Shown: positions 188-12,946 of the stretch, piece after piece
How positions within the stretch are numbered: position 1 is the first letter of the stretch
Layout of the letters: every line of letters begins with the position of its first letter
Source of the DNA: Candidatus Baldrarchaeum yapensis
GTDB taxonomy: Archaea > Asgardarchaeota > Baldrarchaeia > Baldrarchaeales > Baldrarchaeaceae
DNA length: 32,000 bases
NCBI GenBank assembly: GCA_016840465.1
Contig: JAEOSH010000006.1
Coordinates: 46,771-78,770 of the forward strand
Reading direction: 5' to 3'
Made by a program: the position numbers and the translations under genes
Notes under the pieces: model-generated
Told to the model about the DNA's origin: nothing
Seen by the model: the letters and a program-made list of their open reading frames with translations, nothing else
The model's database searches: none

Positions 188-1474
188 ATGAGAATTACTC
201 GACAGCGAAGGTGTTCCATACTCAAAGGTAGTGGTACCATGGGGGCCGGAGATTTTAGAAGTGTGGAAGAACTCCTAAAGGCACATGGCAAACCTCCTAG
301 AGAAGTATATCTCGATTGTGAGAATTCTCCTTGGGTCCCTCCCGAAGTCATTGACGCGATGCTTCCGTACTTTAATACCATCGGATATGGAAACCCCTTG
401 ATAACACATAAGGCCGGTTGGGAAGCTTATGAGGCGTATAGAAGGGCCCTCATACAAATAGCTCGCCCGATAAATGCCGATCCCCAGCAATTCATCATCA
501 CCCACAGCGGGACTGAAGCAAACAATCTCGCAATCAAGGGGTATGTTCTCGCAAACAAAGATAAGGGAAGGAAAATAGTTGTATCGGAAATAGAGCATTT
601 AAGCGTAATTTTCACAGCGGAGTACCTTAAAAACTGCGGATTTGAGGTCGTTAAGGTTCCGGTCGACGCAGAGGGTTTCATAGATCTCGAAAAACTGGCG
701 GATATTGTCGATAGAGAAACCATTCTCGTGAGTATTATGTTGGTCAATCACGAAATAGGGACAATAGAACCCCTCAGGGAGGCCGTGGAAGTAGTAAAGG
801 ACAAAAACCCTGATGTGGTCTTCCACACGGATGCTGCGGATGCGTACGGCAAAATAAAATTTGACGTGGAGAAACTTGGAGTTGATATGGTTTCACTAAG
901 CGCCCGCAAAATTTATGGGCCAAGAGGAGTAGGTGCGCTTTATGTAAGAGAGGGAATAAGGTTGGAAAAACTGATACATGGCCAAATAAGTATAGAGGAA
1001 TTATGGCCGGGGGTCGAGAACGTACCGCTGGTTATGGGTTTCGCAAAAGCAAGTGAACTTATATTCAAAGATTTTGACAGGAACGTCAGCCACATGAGAA
1101 AACTAAGGGACATGCTCATAGACGGCATATTATCATCAATCCCGTACACTTTCCTTAATGGGCCAAAGGGGGATAGAAGAGCGCCGGATAACGTTAACAT
1201 AAGCTTTCTCTACTGCGAAGGCGAGGCCATGGTGATAGAGTTAAGCACGCACGGAGTTTATGTATCCAGTGGAAGCGCGTGTGCAAGCCGAATGTTGGAA
1301 CCAAGTCACGTTCTCCTCGCCATAGGGCGAAAATTTGAAGAAGTGCACGGAAGTCTGCTGATGAAGGTGACGCCATATCACACAGTTGAAGATATAAAGT
1401 ACGTATTAGAAGTATTGCCGAAGGCGGTAGAAAGAATAAGGAGTATAAGTGCACTTAAGCCCGAAGGTGATTGA
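188..1474 (+). CDS. iscS: IscS/NifS-like class V PLP protein (cysteine desulfurase family, atypical active site); likely start ATG 239
   Basis: Motifs YLD, GNP, GTEANNLAIKG, EHLSV, HTDA, SARKIYGPRGVGALY (PLP Lys) and SSGSACAS (persulfide Cys). Directly followed by iscU. Confidence 0.9.
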   Translation: MRITRQRRCSILKGSGTMGAGDFRSVEELLKAHGKPPREVYLDCENSPWVPPEVIDAMLPYFNTIGYGNPLITHKAGWEAYEAYRRALIQIARPINADPQQFIITHSGTEANNLAIKGYVLANKDKGRKIVVSEIEHLSVIFTAEYLKNCGFEVVKVPVDAEGFIDLEKLADIVDRETILVSIMLVNHEIGTIEPLREAVEVVKDKNPDVVFHTDAADAYGKIKFDVEKLGVDMVSLSARKIYGPRGVGALYVREGIRLEKLIHGQISIEELWPGVENVPLVMGFAKASELIFKDFDRNVSHMRKLRDMLIDGILSSIPYTFLNGPKGDRRAPDNVNISFLYCEGEAMVIELSTHGVYVSSGSACASRMLEPSHVLLAIGRKFEEVHGSLLMKVTPYHTVEDIKYVLEVLPKAVERIRSISALKPEGD

Positions 1475-2309: not shown

Positions 2310-3140
2310 GTGGGGAGAAGTATGTGTGACTGGTGCATTAAGCACGGAGAAGGTAAACTATGGTATTTAAACGCGAAAAACTACGCCAGAAAAATGTATC
2401 GAGAGAGAAAAAGAGCGGAACTTACCGGAAAGGTGGAATTTGATCCGCTCAAATTAATAATGGAGCAGCTTGAGAACGCACTTAAGTATTACGGCACCGA
2501 ACGCTGGCCAACCATAAAAAAGCAAATAGAAAACTTCTGCCACGCGGTGCACTTTGGCCAGGTGGTGCCACTTGAAGACCTAAAAGCGATCCTTGACATC
2601 GCATGGCCTATTGCGAGAATAACATGCGCATGTAGACGCATGGTTTATGGACTTGAAGATGAAGAGAACTTCTACTGTTTCGGGATAGGCGTCGGGATGT
2701 ATAAGTGGGAGCGCTGGCCCGAAAATTACAGAGGTGGTGTGGAGTTCATATCCCCCGATGAGGCCAAGAGGCTTGTGGAGGAGTTCAACAAAAAGGGACT
2801 TGTGCACACAATTTGGGTTTTCGGAACTCCCTACATAGGAGGAATATGCAACTGTGAATACCCCGTTTGTCTCGGAATAAGAAACCGTGTGGACTACGGG
2901 ATCAAAATATTACTAAAGGGACATTACGTAGCGGTTCTGGATCCGGAAAAGTGCAACGGTTGTAGAAGATGTGTAGCGAGATGCCAATTCGGGGCGATAA
3001 AATACTCCCCCAGCATGAATAAAGTTGTCATAGATATGAAGAAGTGCTTCGGATGCGGGTTGTGTGTCACCGCCTGTCCTCGTGGAGCAATCAGACTTGA
3101 AAGGAGAGAGAAGTTCCCAGCAATAGCGAATGACTGGTAG
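2310..3140 (+). CDS. 4Fe-4S dicluster-domain protein of unknown function; likely start ATG 2322
   Basis: N-terminal CDWCIKHG, CACR and ICNC motifs, plus a C-terminal CNGCRRCVARC / CFGCGLCVTACP ferredoxin pair. Confidence 0.85.
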   Translation: MGRSMCDWCIKHGEGKLWYLNAKNYARKMYRERKRAELTGKVEFDPLKLIMEQLENALKYYGTERWPTIKKQIENFCHAVHFGQVVPLEDLKAILDIAWPIARITCACRRMVYGLEDEENFYCFGIGVGMYKWERWPENYRGGVEFISPDEAKRLVEEFNKKGLVHTIWVFGTPYIGGICNCEYPVCLGIRNRVDYGIKILLKGHYVAVLDPEKCNGCRRCVARCQFGAIKYSPSMNKVVIDMKKCFGCGLCVTACPRGAIRLERREKFPAIANDW

Positions 3141-3380
3141 GTGAACCGGATGCCGATAAGGATAGAAGTGGACACCGAGAAATGTGGAAACGCAATGGAG
3201 TGCAAGATTTGTCTCAGAGTTTGTCCTCAGAGAGTTTTTATGATGTTCCCAAGCACCTATGAGAAGTACAAGTTATCAGAGAGGTTTTATATACGCCCGG
3301 TCCATGCAGTTGCCTGCGTGCTTTGTAATTTATGTGTGGAAAAATGTCCTAAGGGCGCAATAAGGATAATAACGCAGTAG
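3141..3380 (+). CDS. Ferredoxin family protein; likely start ATG 3150
   Basis: CGNAMECKICLRVCP and CVLCNLCVEKCP motifs. AGGTGA SD before the ATG. Confidence 0.88.
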   Translation: MNRMPIRIEVDTEKCGNAMECKICLRVCPQRVFMMFPSTYEKYKLSERFYIRPVHAVACVLCNLCVEKCPKGAIRIITQ

Positions 3381-5760: not shown

Positions 5761-6186
5761 CTACTGGAGGAAGTCTTTGAGCACCTCTCGTATTCTTTCT
5801 GCGTACTTCTCTCTTTCTTCAAGGCTTATCTTCTCCCTATTGACAATCTTGAGACTAACACCCCTATATCTGGGTATTACGTGGAAGTGGAAGTGAAATA
5901 CCTCCTGCCCACCACCCCTCTCATTCGTCTGGAAGAAACTCAATCCATCAGCGTTAAGAGCCTTACGCGCGGCCATTCCTATTCTTTTCGCCATTACAAT
6001 GACATATGCGAGAAGGTCATCAGGAACCTCATATATATTCTCATAATGTTGCTTTGTCACAACAAGCAGATGACCGGGTGATGCTGGTGCCATGTCCATA
6101 AATGCAACTATTTTATCGTCTTCGTAGACGAATGCAGCCTCCGCCTCTTTCCTTACTATTTTACAGAAGATGCAACCCTCCGACAA
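5761..6186 (-). CDS. HIT family (Hint-like) nucleotide hydrolase
   Basis: N-terminal CIFC, the HLLVV segment and the FHFHFHVIPR histidine triad. Confidence 0.93.
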   Translation of the reverse strand: MSEGCIFCKIVRKEAEAAFVYEDDKIVAFMDMAPASPGHLLVVTKQHYENIYEVPDDLLAYVIVMAKRIGMAARKALNADGLSFFQTNERGGGQEVFHFHFHVIPRYRGVSLKIVNREKISLEEREKYAERIREVLKDFLQ

Positions 6187-6207: not shown

Positions 6208-7053
6208 CTAAACGTACTTAGAAAGATCCCTTAAAAACCCAACCTTTCTCACGCAACCGTGAAACGTCCATTCGTGATTCCCGTACTTCCTTTTCTCTAA
6301 TTCTGTAGCAAACTCTTCCTCTTCATCCTTTAATTCTGACTCTACAAATTCTACATTAAGCGCATCGGAAAATCCCCGTATTAATGCTTTAAGCACAGTA
6401 TCCGTGTCAACATCTACCCCTAAGTCCTTAAGCGATACTATGCTTTTCTTCAAATCGTCTAAAGTCGTCCCACTGGGGACTTTTATGACCTCATACCAAT
6501 CTTCGGGCCTGAAGCCGATAAGCAAAGTTCCGTGTTGCAACAAAGCTTTATGAAGTCTTCGCTGCGCACTTCCCGAAATTTTTCTCCCTTGCACCTTAAT
6601 ATCGCTTTGTGCTTCTCTGAAATAGCAAAGAGCATATTTCCTTGTACCACTAAAGCGTGTTCCATGAGATGCATTGATACCTAACCTTTTGAGTGCACTT
6701 ATTATTCCCCTCGTAATAAAAGTAGCAGAACCGACCACATCATTAGGCATACATGGAAAGTCTAACGGCAGAATCACACTATATGTGATTTCGAGATCCT
6801 CTGCATGTAAAAGCGCTCCTCCGCCGGTTGGTCTTCTAACGAGTTCAAAACCCTTCAATCTTATTTTTTCAATATTCACGGAATCCTCTAACTTTTGATG
6901 AAAACCTATGCTCACAGTACTCGGTCTCCACATGTAAAACCTAATGATCGGCATGTGCTTTTCTGGTTGATAGAGTAAGAGAAGGGCTTCATCGACCGCC
7001 ATGTTCCTTCGTCCCGGCATTTTGTCATGTACTATAAGCCGAGCTTTCAGCAT
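6208..7053 (-). CDS. Lipoate-protein ligase A family, LipM-like octanoyltransferase
   Basis: NMAVDEALL, RFYMWRPSTVSIG, RRPTGGGALLH, LCY (LipM-type Cys), RKISGSAQ and LQHGTL. No separate C-terminal LplB domain. Confidence 0.88.
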   Translation of the reverse strand: MLKARLIVHDKMPGRRNMAVDEALLLLYQPEKHMPIIRFYMWRPSTVSIGFHQKLEDSVNIEKIRLKGFELVRRPTGGGALLHAEDLEITYSVILPLDFPCMPNDVVGSATFITRGIISALKRLGINASHGTRFSGTRKYALCYFREAQSDIKVQGRKISGSAQRRLHKALLQHGTLLIGFRPEDWYEVIKVPSGTTLDDLKKSIVSLKDLGVDVDTDTVLKALIRGFSDALNVEFVESELKDEEEEFATELEKRKYGNHEWTFHGCVRKVGFLRDLSKYV

Positions 7054-7093: not shown

Positions 7094-8485
7094 TTAAACG
7101 ATCTCGAGCAATTTTAAATCTAGATACTCATGCTGGGGATCAAAATAAGCATTGTATATCGGTGTCCTAGGTCTTGTTCCGTAAAGGAACACGTATCCGT
7201 GCCTATAAAAGACCCTTATTCCTCGATCCGCCATGTCTCTGAATATTTTCCTCGATTTAGAACTCTCATGTGCGAATGCAACTATTATATCATTCATTTT
7301 CCTGCCCTCGGATAGTATCCTCGTGCCCGCACGGACACCATCTTCCATGCCAAACGTGTGTTCGAGAGCGTCGATCGAGAACATGATGGCCACATGAGGA
7401 CTACGAACTTTCGCTCTCTCCGTAATGAACGCTCGCACAAACATCTCAACATCTTCAACATCCAAGGACATCATATTCACACGATCATAAATGCTCTTTC
7501 CGAAAATCAATTCAAGTTGACGCAATGGGAACTCCTTGTCGACATACTCGGGTGGTATGTATATTACGTCTATATTGCGTGATAGAAAACCTCTCATGTG
7601 AACCTCGGTGAGGGCGGTGAGAACACCAACCGGGACATAAGGTCCTATTTCGTAAAATAGAAAGTTCCCGTATCTGAATAGTCCTATTGCTCTATCCAAC
7701 GATAGTGATCCTGTTGTGCACCTCTCGTGCGGAATCTTCATCTTAGAAAGTACGTCTACGATCCTTTTCCCCTTTTCCTTTATTTCGCTCATACTTGGAT
7801 ATTTAAATCGTGTCAGCATCTCGAACCTTCCGCCACTAAGCGTAAACGCAACAACTGGATTGTTTATCTTAACGGATCTTAACTTTTCAATGACCATCTC
7901 GCGATACATGCGCCCATTTATTAACTCGTACGTAAGACTTACAACTCCATCAGCGAGGTAATCGAGTTTCGAACTTTTCATCCGTTCGGTTATTATAACG
8001 GTCTTGATGTTCGATTTCCTTGCAAAATCGGAAAACACGTGCATGAATTCTATCTCAGAAACCTTTATGGCATCACATATTGCATCCAGCGAGTCTATGA
8101 CTACTAAGGAGCGATCAACATGAGCAGTTCCACCGATTTTCGTATACAACCCTCTCAGAAAGTCAGGAAATGATGAAAACTCTAAAGCCTCATACATGCT
8201 ATGTGCTCGAGGGAACGGCGTGCGTACGGCATCTATGATGTTCTCGGGCGGAAGATATTCGCTTATATGAGGATATTGGCTCAATACAACGTCCGGGTCG
8301 ACTCTCGTTGAGAGATAATAACCATATCCTCTTTCAGCAAACTCTAATAGGCACTCCATCGAGAAAAGTGTCTTCCCAGATCCGGCCTTACCTTTAACAA
8401 GCAGAATATTGTTCCCCTTTACAGAAAAGAACCGTCTTATCTCCTCTGGCACCCTACTCATCTGATTCCCCATCCTTCCGACCAT
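7094..8485 (-). CDS. GvpD-type KaiC/RecA-superfamily ATPase (intact N-terminal P-loop, degenerate second domain)
   Basis: GKAGSGKT Walker A, LSTRV, VVIDSLDA Walker B, LDYLADGVV and REMVIEKLRSV. The C-terminal half begins TTGSLSLDRAIG without a Walker A. Confidence 0.85.
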   Translation of the reverse strand: MVGRMGNQMSRVPEEIRRFFSVKGNNILLVKGKAGSGKTLFSMECLLEFAERGYGYYLSTRVDPDVVLSQYPHISEYLPPENIIDAVRTPFPRAHSMYEALEFSSFPDFLRGLYTKIGGTAHVDRSLVVIDSLDAICDAIKVSEIEFMHVFSDFARKSNIKTVIITERMKSSKLDYLADGVVSLTYELINGRMYREMVIEKLRSVKINNPVVAFTLSGGRFEMLTRFKYPSMSEIKEKGKRIVDVLSKMKIPHERCTTGSLSLDRAIGLFRYGNFLFYEIGPYVPVGVLTALTEVHMRGFLSRNIDVIYIPPEYVDKEFPLRQLELIFGKSIYDRVNMMSLDVEDVEMFVRAFITERAKVRSPHVAIMFSIDALEHTFGMEDGVRAGTRILSEGRKMNDIIVAFAHESSKSRKIFRDMADRGIRVFYRHGYVFLYGTRPRTPIYNAYFDPQHEYLDLKLLEIV

Positions 8486-8787: not shown

Positions 8788-9591
8788 ATGTCTCAACTTA
8801 TAACGACATCTCTCTTTACTGAAGGAGAGGAGTCGGGATTGCCAATTGCGATCCTCATACTCCATTCAAACGGCATCCTTCTATTTGACCGCATATATGG
8901 CGAAATGCAAATTGGAAAGAGAAAGGAACTGTTCTCGGGACTCATCTCTGCAATCGTGTCCTTTATGAAAGAATTAACATCGTCCGAAATAAAATACCTC
9001 ATGACGGAGGATCATGAAATATTCATTGCCCGCGGAGACAGCATTGTTGTCGCTTTAGTCGCTTATGGAAAATATGATAAGAAAACTCTCGAAAAAGTGT
9101 TACGAGAACTTGTAGATAGTTTTGTTAAACGTTATAGCCATGCGGCATCGCTAGAGGGACTCGTAGAATTATCGGTATTCAGAAAGTTCTCAGAAGAAGT
9201 TGACGCTATTTTCCTAAGAAACGGTCTTATATCGGAGAAAGACATAGTTGCAATAAGGACGCGCGAGATTCTTGAAAGAGTGTCCAAAGGCGAACTATCG
9301 CCGGACCAAGCAATGGGCCTGATTTCCGATATAAAGGAGAACGTGAAATTTTATCGCGTATACGCACCGTCAACACCACACGTCCTCAAAAATGCAGTAA
9401 TAAGAATGTCAACGGATCCTGTGACGGTCACAATTTTAGAAAACATAGGGCGCGGAATGAGTGTCATCGAAATGACCGACGCTTTGAAAAAATCCGGATA
9501 TAATGTAACCCCTGATCGCATACTTGAGATACTTGAAAGCTTAAGGGCTAGGGGAATTGTGAAACTCGATAAGTACAGAATCCCGGCATAA
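8788..9591 (+). CDS. Longin-like domain + SHOCT-like helix pair + C-terminal winged HTH protein; possible start TTG 8839
   Basis: IAILILHSNGILLFDRIY...ELFSGLISAIVSFMKEL...FRKFSEEVDAIF is a longin pattern. ILERVSKGELSPDQAMGLI is SHOCT-like. The terminal helices end in ILESLRARGIVKL. Assigned by eye. Confidence 0.65.
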   Translation: MSQLITTSLFTEGEESGLPIAILILHSNGILLFDRIYGEMQIGKRKELFSGLISAIVSFMKELTSSEIKYLMTEDHEIFIARGDSIVVALVAYGKYDKKTLEKVLRELVDSFVKRYSHAASLEGLVELSVFRKFSEEVDAIFLRNGLISEKDIVAIRTREILERVSKGELSPDQAMGLISDIKENVKFYRVYAPSTPHVLKNAVIRMSTDPVTVTILENIGRGMSVIEMTDALKKSGYNVTPDRILEILESLRARGIVKLDKYRIPA

Positions 9592-9642
9592 AAAGATAGG
9601 AGCGAGAATCTCTAAACAAAATTACTATGAGTATTAAGATCC

Positions 9643-9705
9643 GATGTCAGTAGTCGAGGTATTCATCATCAGGTCAGAGGGTAGTCCCTAGCCATCATCC
9701 GCATC
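9643..9705 (-). ncRNA. Box C/D 2'-O-methylation guide sRNA
   Basis: Minus strand: C ATGATGG (9698-9692), 14-nt guide, D' CTGA (9677-9674), 4-nt spacer, C' ATGATGA (9669-9663), 12-nt guide, D CTGA (9650-9647). Terminal GATG/CATC stem. The D' guide GGGACTACCC is antisense to the conserved 16S GGGUAGUCC(C/U). Confidence 0.85.
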
Positions 9706-9743
9706 TAATGGTATAATTGCAGAAAATAAACTTAATGGTGAAG

Positions 9744-10499
9744 TCATAGTAACAAATCACCCCGACGATATTCCTCAATATCACCAATGATTCCCTTTAC
9801 TCTTTCGAGTCTCTCCTTCATCTGGAGGATTCCACTGTCAACGTTAACCCTCAAACTTCTTCTTAAAACTGAAGATACTACCTCCACTCCTCCCAGAAAG
9901 CTTTTTATCTCATGATATGCTTTTTCGGCTGACCTCTTATCAAGAGATCCAGAAGCTATTCTGACCATCAACATATCTATGAGCTTGTCTATTTTCTTTA
10001 TCCGCGACTCCAGTTGTTCTTTGAACATGTTCCGAATTATTTTATGCATCCAGTCCTCTAGTGGTCTCAGCTTTGAAAGTTTGAAACACTTTCCCCCCTC
10101 ACTCTTTATGAGCATGACTATCTCTCCTGGAGTTACTATCTTGGGGTGCATTCTCTTCTTCACATATGCGAACAGGTATGTGGACTTTGCGATTCTTATT
10201 GCGGGTGCATACCACATCATTCTCTGGAGGCGTTTTCTCAGTTTAACATTAGATTGGGGCAGATCAGAATACGTCACAAGACTGAGACTTCCAACGTTAA
10301 CGTCATCGCCGCTGACATGGGGTTTTTCAACGCTCCTGAATTTCTTAAGAACAATATAGGAGTTTTCTGGGAGCACGATGTCACCCTTCGGGACGATCCA
10401 CACCCGCCGCCCTATTCTTCGCGCTCCTTTGATCTCAAGCAACTTCTGTATCCGTTGCCTTCGGGAGGAACTCCCATCGATCAGAATTACTATCTGCAC
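9744..10499 (-). CDS. Hypothetical protein with two ChrB_N/PaaX-central/Cas2-like ferredoxin-fold modules and a helical C-terminus
   Basis: IVILID...RRQRIQKLLEIKGARRIGRRVWIVP and LVTYSDLP...LRKRLQRMMWYAPAIRIAKSTYLF. GTG start with a GGTGA SD. Confidence 0.6.
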   Translation of the reverse strand: MQIVILIDGSSSRRQRIQKLLEIKGARRIGRRVWIVPKGDIVLPENSYIVLKKFRSVEKPHVSGDDVNVGSLSLVTYSDLPQSNVKLRKRLQRMMWYAPAIRIAKSTYLFAYVKKRMHPKIVTPGEIVMLIKSEGGKCFKLSKLRPLEDWMHKIIRNMFKEQLESRIKKIDKLIDMLMVRIASGSLDKRSAEKAYHEIKSFLGGVEVVSSVLRRSLRVNVDSGILQMKERLERVKGIIGDIEEYRRGDLLL

Positions 10500-10757: not shown

Positions 10758-11564
10758 GTGATGCAGATGAGCGGTGAAAGGGAACTCATGGAGGCTGTGA
10801 GATCCGCTGCGGAACTCATAGTATCATCGGAGTACGTAATTGCCCTCACAGGTGCTGGAATTTCTGTGGAAAGTGGAATACCTCCATTTAGGGGTCCCGG
10901 TGGAATATGGACAAAGTACGGTGAGCCACCGCCAGATCAGTATCAGGAGTTTCTTCGGGATCCAAAGGGTTGGTGGGAGAGGAGGTTAAAGAGAGAGCTA
11001 GAAGGGCCGACAGGTGAGATGGTGAGAAAAATTTACGAGGCGAAGCCGAATCTTGCGCATAAGGCTCTTGCCGAGTTAGAAGAAATGGGAATATTAAAAT
11101 CGATAATTACGCAAAACATAGACGGTCTGCATCAAAAGGCCGGGAGCAAAAACGTGATAGAGATCCATGGCAACATTTACAAACTCAGGTGCATTTCGTG
11201 TAATGCCAGATTTGATAGAGACAAGTTTGAGATAAAAGAACTTCCACCGCTGTGTCCCAATTGTGGTGGATTGGTAAAACCAGACGTAGTATACTTCGGG
11301 GAACCCATTCCACCGGATATGCTAAATGCGTCCCTCCTAGAGGTATATAAGTGCGACTGCATGCTCGTCGTTGGAACATCCGCAGTCGTCTACCCAGCCG
11401 CAGGTTTTCCGATAGCCGCAAAAAGACGCGGGGCCTTTCTTATAGAAGTGAATCCGTATGAAACCTCAATATCACATATATGCGATGTGGTCTTGAGAGA
11501 GGCCGCAGGAAAAGCTCTACCACTGGTCGTCCAGGAGGTTAGGCGTTTGCTTGCCAGAAGGTGA
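10758..11564 (+). CDS. cobB: NAD-dependent protein deacylase (sirtuin, CobB/Sir2)
   Basis: TGAGISVESGIPPFRG, TQNIDGLH, IHG, CISC/CPNC zinc site, KPDVVYFGE, GTSAVVYPAA and EVNP. Confidence 0.95.
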   Translation: MMQMSGERELMEAVRSAAELIVSSEYVIALTGAGISVESGIPPFRGPGGIWTKYGEPPPDQYQEFLRDPKGWWERRLKRELEGPTGEMVRKIYEAKPNLAHKALAELEEMGILKSIITQNIDGLHQKAGSKNVIEIHGNIYKLRCISCNARFDRDKFEIKELPPLCPNCGGLVKPDVVYFGEPIPPDMLNASLLEVYKCDCMLVVGTSAVVYPAAGFPIAAKRRGAFLIEVNPYETSISHICDVVLREAAGKALPLVVQEVRRLLARR

Positions 11565-12946
11565 AATCTATGGGTCAAGTGAAGATAACGTTCTACGGCG
11601 GTGTTGGTGAAATAGGCGGAAATAAAATACTGGTAGAAGATAAAGGATACGATGTACGGCTTCTCTTAGATTTTGGTAAATCCTTTAAAATAGCATCACA
11701 GTATTACCAATTTCCGATCGATTACCCTTCAAGCCTAGATGAGTTGCTCGATCTTGGTGCAATTCCACAGATAGAAAACCTTTATACGAGAGAGTTTTTG
11801 GCACGAAGGAATGGAGATGTCGGGGGAGAGGAGGAGCCTCCGGTTGACGCGTGTTTGATATCCCACGCACACATGGATCACGCACAATACATATCTCTCC
11901 TAAATAGAAAAATACCGGTATATGTGAGCGAGTGCTCATACAGCATTCTCACTGCGGCAGATCAGATATGGCGAACACGGCTAGAGACAAATTTTTCCGG
12001 AATAAAATTTGAAGTATTCAAAAATGGCCAGAAAATAAAAGTTGGAAATTTAGAGATAAAGGCTCTTTACGTCGATCATAGCATTCCTGGGGCGTCCGCG
12101 TTCATACTCTACACCAGTGAGGGGCCATTGGCGTACACGGGCGACTTCAGACTTCATGGAACTTTTGAAACTCTAACAAGCGCTTTTATTGACGCTTTGA
12201 GAATGGAGGAGAAGATAATTGCGCTAATATTTGAATCTACGTCGATATTTCGAAGCAGGATGCAAAGTGAAAGGAACGTCGAGGACTCCGCGGGGATACT
12301 TGCAAGTGCGTGTAGAGGGCTCGTAATAGCAGATTTCTCATCAACCGATTTCTTCAGATTCCAGACATTTTACAAGGTTGCACGTAAATGTGGAAGAGAG
12401 ATTGTAATTACTGAGAGGTTTGCAAAGATTGTAGAGGCAATAAACCAGTACCCCGAGTACAGGTGGCCGGGTTTAAGATCCTCCGGAGACATAAGGATAA
12501 TCCCAGATGCGCAACGGAGGGAAAGATGGAGAGAGGAGATGCGTAGAAGATTTCCCGACCTATATATAAATTGGGATGAAGTGCGCAAAAATCCACAAAA
12601 GTACATATTTTGTACATCTTATAACAGTGTTCGCGACCTGAGAACAATAAAACCGGAGCCAGGATCAATTTACATACTGAGTTCGAGCGAACCCTTCAAT
12701 GAGGAGCGCGAACTTGCGTTTGAAAAGTTGTTAAACTGGCTGGAAAAGTTAAATGTGCCGATGTACCGTATTCACGCCAGTGGCCATGCAACACCTCACG
12801 AAATCCAACAACTTGTGCACGAGACCCGTCCTAAAGTGATAATACCAATACATACCGAGTATCCTGCCGTCATTGCAGGATTTCTGCAAGGCCTTTCCGA
12901 GAAATCTCTTATACCCGAAAAGGGAATAACATACGAAATACAATAA
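11561..12946 (+). CDS. RNase J-like beta-CASP metallo-beta-lactamase; likely start ATG 11570
   Basis: GGVGEIGGN, SHAHMDH, VDHSIPG, YTGDFR, HASGH and IPIHTE. Confidence 0.87.
   Translation: MKSMGQVKITFYGGVGEIGGNKILVEDKGYDVRLLLDFGKSFKIASQYYQFPIDYPSSLDELLDLGAIPQIENLYTREFLARRNGDVGGEEEPPVDACLISHAHMDHAQYISLLNRKIPVYVSECSYSILTAADQIWRTRLETNFSGIKFEVFKNGQKIKVGNLEIKALYVDHSIPGASAFILYTSEGPLAYTGDFRLHGTFETLTSAFIDALRMEEKIIALIFESTSIFRSRMQSERNVEDSAGILASACRGLVIADFSSTDFFRFQTFYKVARKCGREIVITERFAKIVEAINQYPEYRWPGLRSSGDIRIIPDAQRRERWREEMRRRFPDLYINWDEVRKNPQKYIFCTSYNSVRDLRTIKPEPGSIYILSSSEPFNEERELAFEKLLNWLEKLNVPMYRIHASGHATPHEIQQLVHETRPKVIIPIHTEYPAVIAGFLQGLSEKSLIPEKGITYEIQ

Follow-up and report, generated by a model that had tools for sequence, protein, structure and literature searches.

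A 63-nt segment on the minus strand of the window (the whole 32,000-nt stretch of DNA analyzed here) very probably encodes a genuine, if unremarkable, archaeal box C/D guide RNA, with one arm matching the organism's own 16S rRNA. Judged from sequence comparisons, the best explanation, and one that we consider likely, is that it is the box C/D sRNA gene of a thermophilic archaeon whose D' guide directs methylation of the 16S nucleotide equivalent to E. coli U801. The segment displays the four-box architecture of its class, which occurs in this genome more often than chance provides, its D' guide is complementary in the correct register to the genome's own 16S, and genes for the protein machinery are present in the same genome. 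Its terminal k-turn is slightly atypical, and one guide is an orphan.

We took an archaeal box C/D methylation-guide sRNA to comprise a C box (RUGAUGA) near the 5' end and a D box (CUGA) near the 3' end, with tandem sheared G-A pairs possible between them, an internal D'/C' k-loop with 3-9 nt between its boxes, spacers of about 12 nt, a canonical terminal stem next to a k-turn bulge of 3 nt, and a guide that pairs from position 2 over at least 9-10 bp with a stable RNA of the same organism, position 5 being paired, in a genome that encodes L7Ae, Nop5 and fibrillarin. Read from 9705 to 9643, the element has the layout C / 14-nt spacer / D' / 4 nt / C' / 12-nt spacer / D, with the following parts:

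9643 to 9705, minus strand: predicted box C/D sRNA as a whole, 63 nt, with four-box architecture
9702 to 9705, minus strand: 5' strand of the terminal stem, GAUG, 4 bp with CAUC at 9646-9643
between the 5' strand of the terminal stem and box C, minus strand: CGG, three unpaired nucleotides
9692 to 9698, minus strand: box C, AUGAUGG, mismatched to the consensus RUGAUGA at the last (seventh) base only
9678 to 9691, minus strand: D' spacer and guide, CUAGGGACUACCCU (DNA CTAGGGACTACCCT), 14 nt; positions 2-11 counted from D' are 9679-9688 and pair with 16S, position 5 being A9682
9674 to 9677, minus strand: box D', CUGA, perfect
between 9674 and 9669, minus strand: CCUG, the 4 nt linking D' to C'
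9663 to 9669, minus strand: box C', AUGAUGA, perfect, 4 nt after D'
9651 to 9662, minus strand: D spacer and guide, AUACCUCGACUA (DNA ATACCTCGACTA), 12 nt, an orphan so far
9647 to 9650, minus strand: box D, CUGA, perfect
9643 to 9646, minus strand: 3' strand of the terminal stem, CAUC, pairing with GAUG

The terminal pair of boxes is thus represented by AUGAUGG and CUGA, the former keeping intact the UGA and GA used in the tandem sheared G-A pairs, and the internal k-loop by two perfect boxes 4 nt apart. The initial annotation had reported all four boxes, as well as a C box that departs from the consensus only at its last base, and both observations hold on the minus strand between 9705 and 9643, with the G-A core intact. 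Its description of the spacing as canonical is right for the 12-nt D spacer but not for the D' spacer, which at 14 nt lies above the 10-13 nt (mostly 12) of the sibling sRNAs of this genome; likewise, the 4-bp terminal stem that it described (GATG/CATC) exists, but sits 2 nt off the k-turn register of those siblings.

The element lies within a 152-nt gap between two convergent ORFs, at 8788-9591 (plus strand) and 9744-10499 (minus strand), and is covered by no ORF. The stop codon of the co-oriented ORF (10499-9744) lies 38 nt before its start, at the distance and in the orientation given earlier. The same upstream gene had been called ChrB/Cas2-like, an assignment that was not borne out, the 251-aa ORF at 9744-10499 having no match in Pfam or NCBIfam. 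The 267-aa ORF on the other side (8788-9591, plus strand) has only a sub-threshold SHOCT-like match, and neither flanking ORF has a convincing family. Putative transcription signals and further neighboring genes are as follows:

9723 to 9730, minus strand: TATA-like element TTTATTTT, 25-32 nt upstream of box C, identified by eye
9614 to 9621, minus strand: T-rich run TTTTGTTT, 22-29 nt downstream of the sRNA, identified by eye
7094 to 8485, minus strand: neighboring gene for a GvpD/KaiC-like P-loop ATPase
10758 to 11564, plus strand: neighboring gene for a SIR2-family protein with a zinc-ribbon insert
11561 to 12946, plus strand: gene for a metallo-beta-lactamase/beta-CASP-type RNA hydrolase, overlapping the end of the SIR2 gene by 4 nt

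A/T-rich TATA-like elements were also seen by eye at roughly the same position upstream of several siblings, the clearest being TTTATATT before the sRNA on contig C74 and ATATTTAAA before the one on C56 at 27463. The candidate probably has its own promoter, and the T-rich run may be an archaeal terminator. Because the TATA-like element precedes box C, the sRNA could be, but need not be, co-transcribed with the upstream ORF. The ATPase, SIR2 and RNA hydrolase genes have no evident link to the sRNA.

The genome's own 16S is represented by its 3' part, which stands at the start of contig C59 (1-860, model positions 706-1467) and is followed by the 23S at C59:1031-4195; the 5' ~700 nt of the 16S (positions 1 to about 705) are missing from the assembly. 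In the target region this 16S reads CCCGGGUAGUCCCGGC, within the longer stretch ...GAUUAGAUACCCGGGUAGUCCCGGCUGUAAAC..., and positions 2-11 of the D' guide form 10 contiguous Watson-Crick pairs out of 10 with GGGUAGUCCC (C59:108-117), position 1 (U vs C) and position 12 (A vs G) being unpaired. Position 5 of the guide, A9682, stands opposite U111 of C59 in an A-U pair. By the standard numbering, in which the 806R primer site runs from A787 to C806 and A790, G791 and A794 lie in the 790 loop, the target column is E. coli U801. In the alignment of Dennis et al. 2015 (PMC4644070), which includes E. coli, the column of U111 is the U of CCCUGG-U-AGUCC. Archaeal C/D RNPs read 10 bp from position 2, position 1 being ignored and 10 nt being the maximum (PMC7229835). 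For the 6.7 kb of assembled rRNA and tRNA, the probability of a perfect complement is 0.005 with a random genomic 10-mer and 0.011 with shuffles of the guide core. The initial annotation had read the D' guide as antisense to the conserved 16S segment at the 806R site and, by the N+5 rule, had placed position 5 opposite the U of GGG-U-AGUCC, i.e. E. coli U801. That mapping is correct; a 16S without the segment had been named as grounds for abandoning the claim, and the partial 16S of this genome carries GGGUAGUCCC. The comparison of both guides with the genome's own rRNAs and tRNAs, which had been proposed as a check, gave 10/10 for the D' guide on 16S and no match of at least 9/10 for the D guide.

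A second, weaker site for the D' guide lies in 16S at C59:591-602 (AGGGUAAUCCCC; 9/10); it has a single internal mismatch, two positions away from the U that would be targeted, and is probably not used. The only 16S gene being cut at the contig start, guide-target surveys of this genome are blind to almost half of 16S. With 66% G+C, and with 86-89% identity to relatives in the phylum as well as to Ignisphaera, the partial 16S fits a thermophile but does not place the organism.

Fibrillarin (349 bits) and Nop5 (Nop, 259 bits) are encoded by adjacent genes on contig C64, and L7Ae (109 bits) is encoded on C67. We infer transcription, RNP assembly and methylation along the following lines. L7Ae would attach to the ~60-nt transcript at two places, the terminal C/D motif and the internal C'/D' motif, and the L7Ae-bound sRNA would recruit a Nop5 dimer and two fibrillarins. 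The D' spacer would form a 10-bp duplex with GGGUAGUCCC, part of the 3' strand of helix 24 immediately past the 790 loop, and fibrillarin would 2'-O-methylate the nucleotide opposite spacer position 5, the equivalent of E. coli U801. The D spacer may be an "empty" guide, or may target an RNA outside the assembly.

The strict four-box architecture (at most one substitution in C and in C', D' and D exact, spacers of 10-14, 2-8 and 10-13 nt) was found at 7 sites in the 2.27-Mb genome, the candidate among them, vs 0, 0, 1, 0, 1 and 0 sites in six shuffles (~0.3), and a looser regular expression gave 15 sites, vs 1-3 in shuffles. The other sites recovered in this way mostly have 12-nt spacers, and guides that match the genome's own 23S, 16S or tRNAs at 9.5-10/10; at least eight siblings have rRNA or tRNA matches at this level, and about ten siblings in the genome have rRNA targets. 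The Pyrococcus C/D covariance model (snoPyro_CD) recovers the same set genome-wide, the candidate ranking 9th with 17.9 bits. Sibling C/D sRNA candidates of the genome are given by contig:

C1:53244-53292, minus strand: sibling C/D sRNA candidate
C56:1424-1472, plus strand: sibling C/D sRNA candidate
C56:116639-116688, plus strand: sibling C/D sRNA candidate
C56:27463-27513, minus strand: sibling C/D sRNA candidate
C65:21540-21588, plus strand: sibling C/D sRNA candidate
C69:2137-2185, minus strand: sibling C/D sRNA candidate
C74:17453-17499, minus strand: sibling C/D sRNA candidate
C64:27717-27766, plus strand: sibling C/D sRNA candidate
C51:14526-14589, plus strand: sibling C/D sRNA candidate
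C7:3540-3605, minus strand: sibling C/D sRNA candidate

Along with 12-nt spacers, most of these siblings have canonical terminal stems and 9.5-10/10 matches to the genome's own 23S, 16S or tRNA-Leu. The C-box variant AUGAAGA is present in three of them.

The genome is alone in its family. A BLAST search for homologues of the candidate in 40 relatives returned only noise, the exact guide-plus-box pattern was found among 400 genomes of the phylum in the source genome only, and four order-level MAGs, in which no 16S is assembled, gave two matches when one mismatch was allowed, both coding and both without boxes. With no homologue in relatives, conservation and covariation therefore lend no support within the lineage. 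The string GGACUAC occurs in none of the 489 sRNAs from seven archaea described by Dennis et al. 2015 (PMC4644070), and the site is not among their targets. A scan of one genome per prokaryotic species with the pattern TGATG-N3-9-GGACTACCC-N-CTGA returned 72 matches, mostly bacterial and consistent with chance, of which four belong to hyperthermophilic Thermoprotei (two Ignisphaera, an Aeropyrum MAG and Thermoprotei archaeon B45_G16):

L055, ~5850-5925, plus strand: C/D sRNA of Thermoprotei archaeon B45_G16, unannotated
L068, ~800-880, plus strand: Ignisphaera C/D sRNA, unannotated
L077, ~6225-6300, plus strand: C/D sRNA of the Aeropyrum MAG, unannotated
L092, ~3125-3205, minus strand: Ignisphaera C/D sRNA, unannotated

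A C box lies upstream at all four loci, which have the appearance of complete C/D sRNAs. In these RNAs the guide GGACUACCCG, with CUGA behind it, brings position 5 onto the same 16S uridine, and in both Ignisphaera genomes the pairing with their own 16S extends over 10 bp, again with position 5 on that uridine. The U801 equivalent is targeted recurrently, and the target prediction is therefore supported. Two haloarchaeal matches (L064 and L101) were rejected as C/D sRNAs: they have no C boxes, look coding and are attributed to chance.

The Thermoprotei sRNAs belong to a different phylum from the candidate and carry their U801 guide before box D, with spacers of 13-18 nt, whereas the candidate carries it before D', with 14 nt. 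The candidate's D guide, ACCUCGACUA, is similar to the other guide of these sRNAs, CCCUCGGCUAA, but the two are 3 nt out of register, and we give low weight to the resemblance. Common descent is no more likely than convergence. It is improbable, albeit conceivable, that methylation of the U801 equivalent is a recurrent, independently gained modification of hyperthermophilic archaea, guided from D' here and from D in Ignisphaera, Aeropyrum and another Thermoprotei lineage, with the partner guides ACCUCGACUA and CCCUCGGCUAA both left over from a single ancestral two-guide RNA in which the halves changed places. The D' guides of the sRNAs at L055, L068 and L092 (CCCUCGGCUAA or UCCCGGCUAAA) are complementary to AGCCGAGGG or AGCCGGGAG, versions of a variable 23S segment seen in other archaea.

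The D guide of the candidate, AUACCUCGACUA, would require the target UAGUCGAGGUAU, methylating the C in AGU-C-GAGG. No site of at least 9/10 was found in the partial 16S, the 23S and the ARAGORN tRNAs with and without introns, nor in the 41 Rfam-detected tRNA genes with 25-nt flanks, intron-bearing ones included; these 41 are the tRNA genes found in a genome that is 96% complete. The initial annotation had likewise left this guide unassigned. Elsewhere in the genome, perfect 10-mer sites occur at the chance rate, three of them in coding sequence and one intergenic, at C58:5742, without an Rfam family match.

Several specific targets for the D guide were considered and set aside, the first two of them in the unassembled 5' 700 nt of the 16S. 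For 16S helix 4/5 (CAUGCNAGUCGAGGU, as in M. kandleri), a metagenome scan gave 120 matches, none of them in a 16S gene. At the variable segment of the 16S helix 3/18 junction, relatives carry GUAGUCAAGACGA or GUGGUCGGGGUGA, and a 16S with the required sequence was absent from 80 relatives, the single match being coding. Homology with the D' guide of the Thermoprotei sRNAs, targeting 23S AGCCGAGGG, leads to a site in the genome's own 23S (CAGCCGAGGGUU) at which pairing reaches only 7/10, the register being shifted by 3 nt and an A-C mismatch adjoining position 5. A search of metagenome contigs for the missing 5' part of the 16S, using an exact 25-mer of the genome's own 16S, gave no match.

It is unlikely that the element is a real sRNA gene that is decaying or only partly active, with RNP assembly or methylation weakened, an RNA that pairs with 16S perhaps as a folding chaperone only or is made at a low level, U801 un- or partly methylated, and an orphan D guide that reflects drift; we keep this alternative mainly because the terminal stem is off register. 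Three unpaired nucleotides separate that stem from box C, vs exactly one in 8 of 8 sibling sRNAs, whose stems of 4-10 bp all come with the canonical 3-nt k-turn bulge; the bulge of the candidate would be 5 nt, i.e. 2 nt off the canonical register, and the alternative C box reading CGGAUGA would give a bulge of 2 nt and a D' spacer of 17 nt. Decay would also agree with a D' spacer longer than every sibling spacer, a D guide that finds no target in the partial 16S, the 23S and the 41 tRNAs, the failure to find a homologue in relatives, and a snoPyro_CD score that is the lowest among the credible sRNAs of the genome. Yet the G-A core is intact in all four boxes, C', D' and D are perfect, and the D' guide, with 10/10 pairs, is free of decay. 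Weak or absent stems occur in some archaeal sRNAs, and archaeal L7Ae also binds k-loops, which have no canonical stem. The two halves of a C/D RNA, moreover, function independently (PMC7229835). Spacers of 12 nt are typical of archaea, yet this length restriction is dispensable for activity, the surplus being looped out, and a Sulfolobus RNP is fully active with spacers of 21-23 nt; because extra length is looped out with activity kept, the 14-nt D' spacer is not disqualifying (PMC7229835).

That the boxes are chance motifs in an A/T-rich intergenic spacer, giving rise to no stable RNA and matching 16S by coincidence, is very unlikely. Box motifs are short, shuffled genomes do yield 0-1 strict matches, and the candidate has neither conservation in relatives, nor a canonical stem, nor an Rfam match above threshold. 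Against a chance origin stand the joint expectation for a chance architecture (~0.3) and a perfect, register-correct 10-mer in either guide (~0.01-0.02), which comes to <0.01 per genome, a TATA-like element at roughly the position seen in several siblings, and the targeting of the same nucleotide by sRNAs of other archaea. The folding energy, no better than that of shuffles (z = 0.4), is uninformative, as is normal for the box C/D RNA class. There is hardly any likelihood that the RNA is real and its main substrate is something other than 16S U801, the D guide methylating an mRNA or an RNA that the assembly lacks (a missing tRNA or the 5' 700 nt of 16S). The canonical 12-nt length of the D spacer speaks for such a substrate, as do the missing 16S positions 1 to about 705 and a count of only 41 tRNA genes at 96% completeness. 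A D-guide substrate of this kind would not, however, conflict with the D' target, double guides being the rule in archaea, while the two specific 16S candidate sites (helix 4/5 and the helix 3/18 junction) found no support, and the perfect 10-mer sites are as frequent as chance predicts and fall in coding sequence or outside any known RNA.

Read as a box C/D sRNA with a guide for the U801 equivalent, the element extends the catalog of an uncultured thermophilic archaeon by a guide RNA and a predicted 16S modification site. That site falls within the region of the universal 806R primer and adjoins the 790 loop, where the two subunits meet. Although absent from the published seven-species target map, it recurs in four Thermoprotei genomes, and would be reasonable to check in RiboMeth-seq of hyperthermophiles. 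To our knowledge, few C/D sRNAs are annotated, for want of a reliable automatic detector. The evidence supports viewing the candidate as an unannotated, previously uncatalogued member of a large, well-understood RNA class, with a 16S target that is plausible and fairly uncommon, and as otherwise routine.

Within the window, no Rfam family reaches its gathering score, which makes the earlier description of the element as unannotated plausible. Full-length alignments spanning the four boxes were obtained with eight archaeal C/D families of Rfam, all at scores below threshold. Against the Pyrococcus families snoPyro_CD (RF00095) and sR30 (RF01134), the candidate scores 17.9 bits vs a gathering score of 45 and 15.8 bits vs 38, respectively; the likeness is confined to the boxes and the guides are unrelated, and the candidate is therefore not a member of RF00095 or RF01134. 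With a best Rfam score of 17.9 vs 45, it is accordingly assigned to none of the named Rfam families. Archaea do have sRNAs with a single guide or an "empty" one, e.g. sR152 of T. tenax (PMC4644070); the D guide of the candidate, part of the 16S being unassembled, is at most possibly empty. Compared with archaeal double-guide box C/D sRNAs (Omer et al. 2000 and Gaspin et al. 2000, as cited in PMC7994747; Dennis et al. 2015, PMC4644070), the candidate stands apart in its 14-nt D' spacer, its stem outside the k-turn register and its one assignable target. It resembles them in its length of ~60 nt, in its C, D', C' and D boxes with a ~12-nt guide before each D-type box, in a 10-bp rRNA duplex with methylation predicted at the fifth nucleotide upstream of the box, and in its predicted dependence on L7Ae, Nop5 and fibrillarin.
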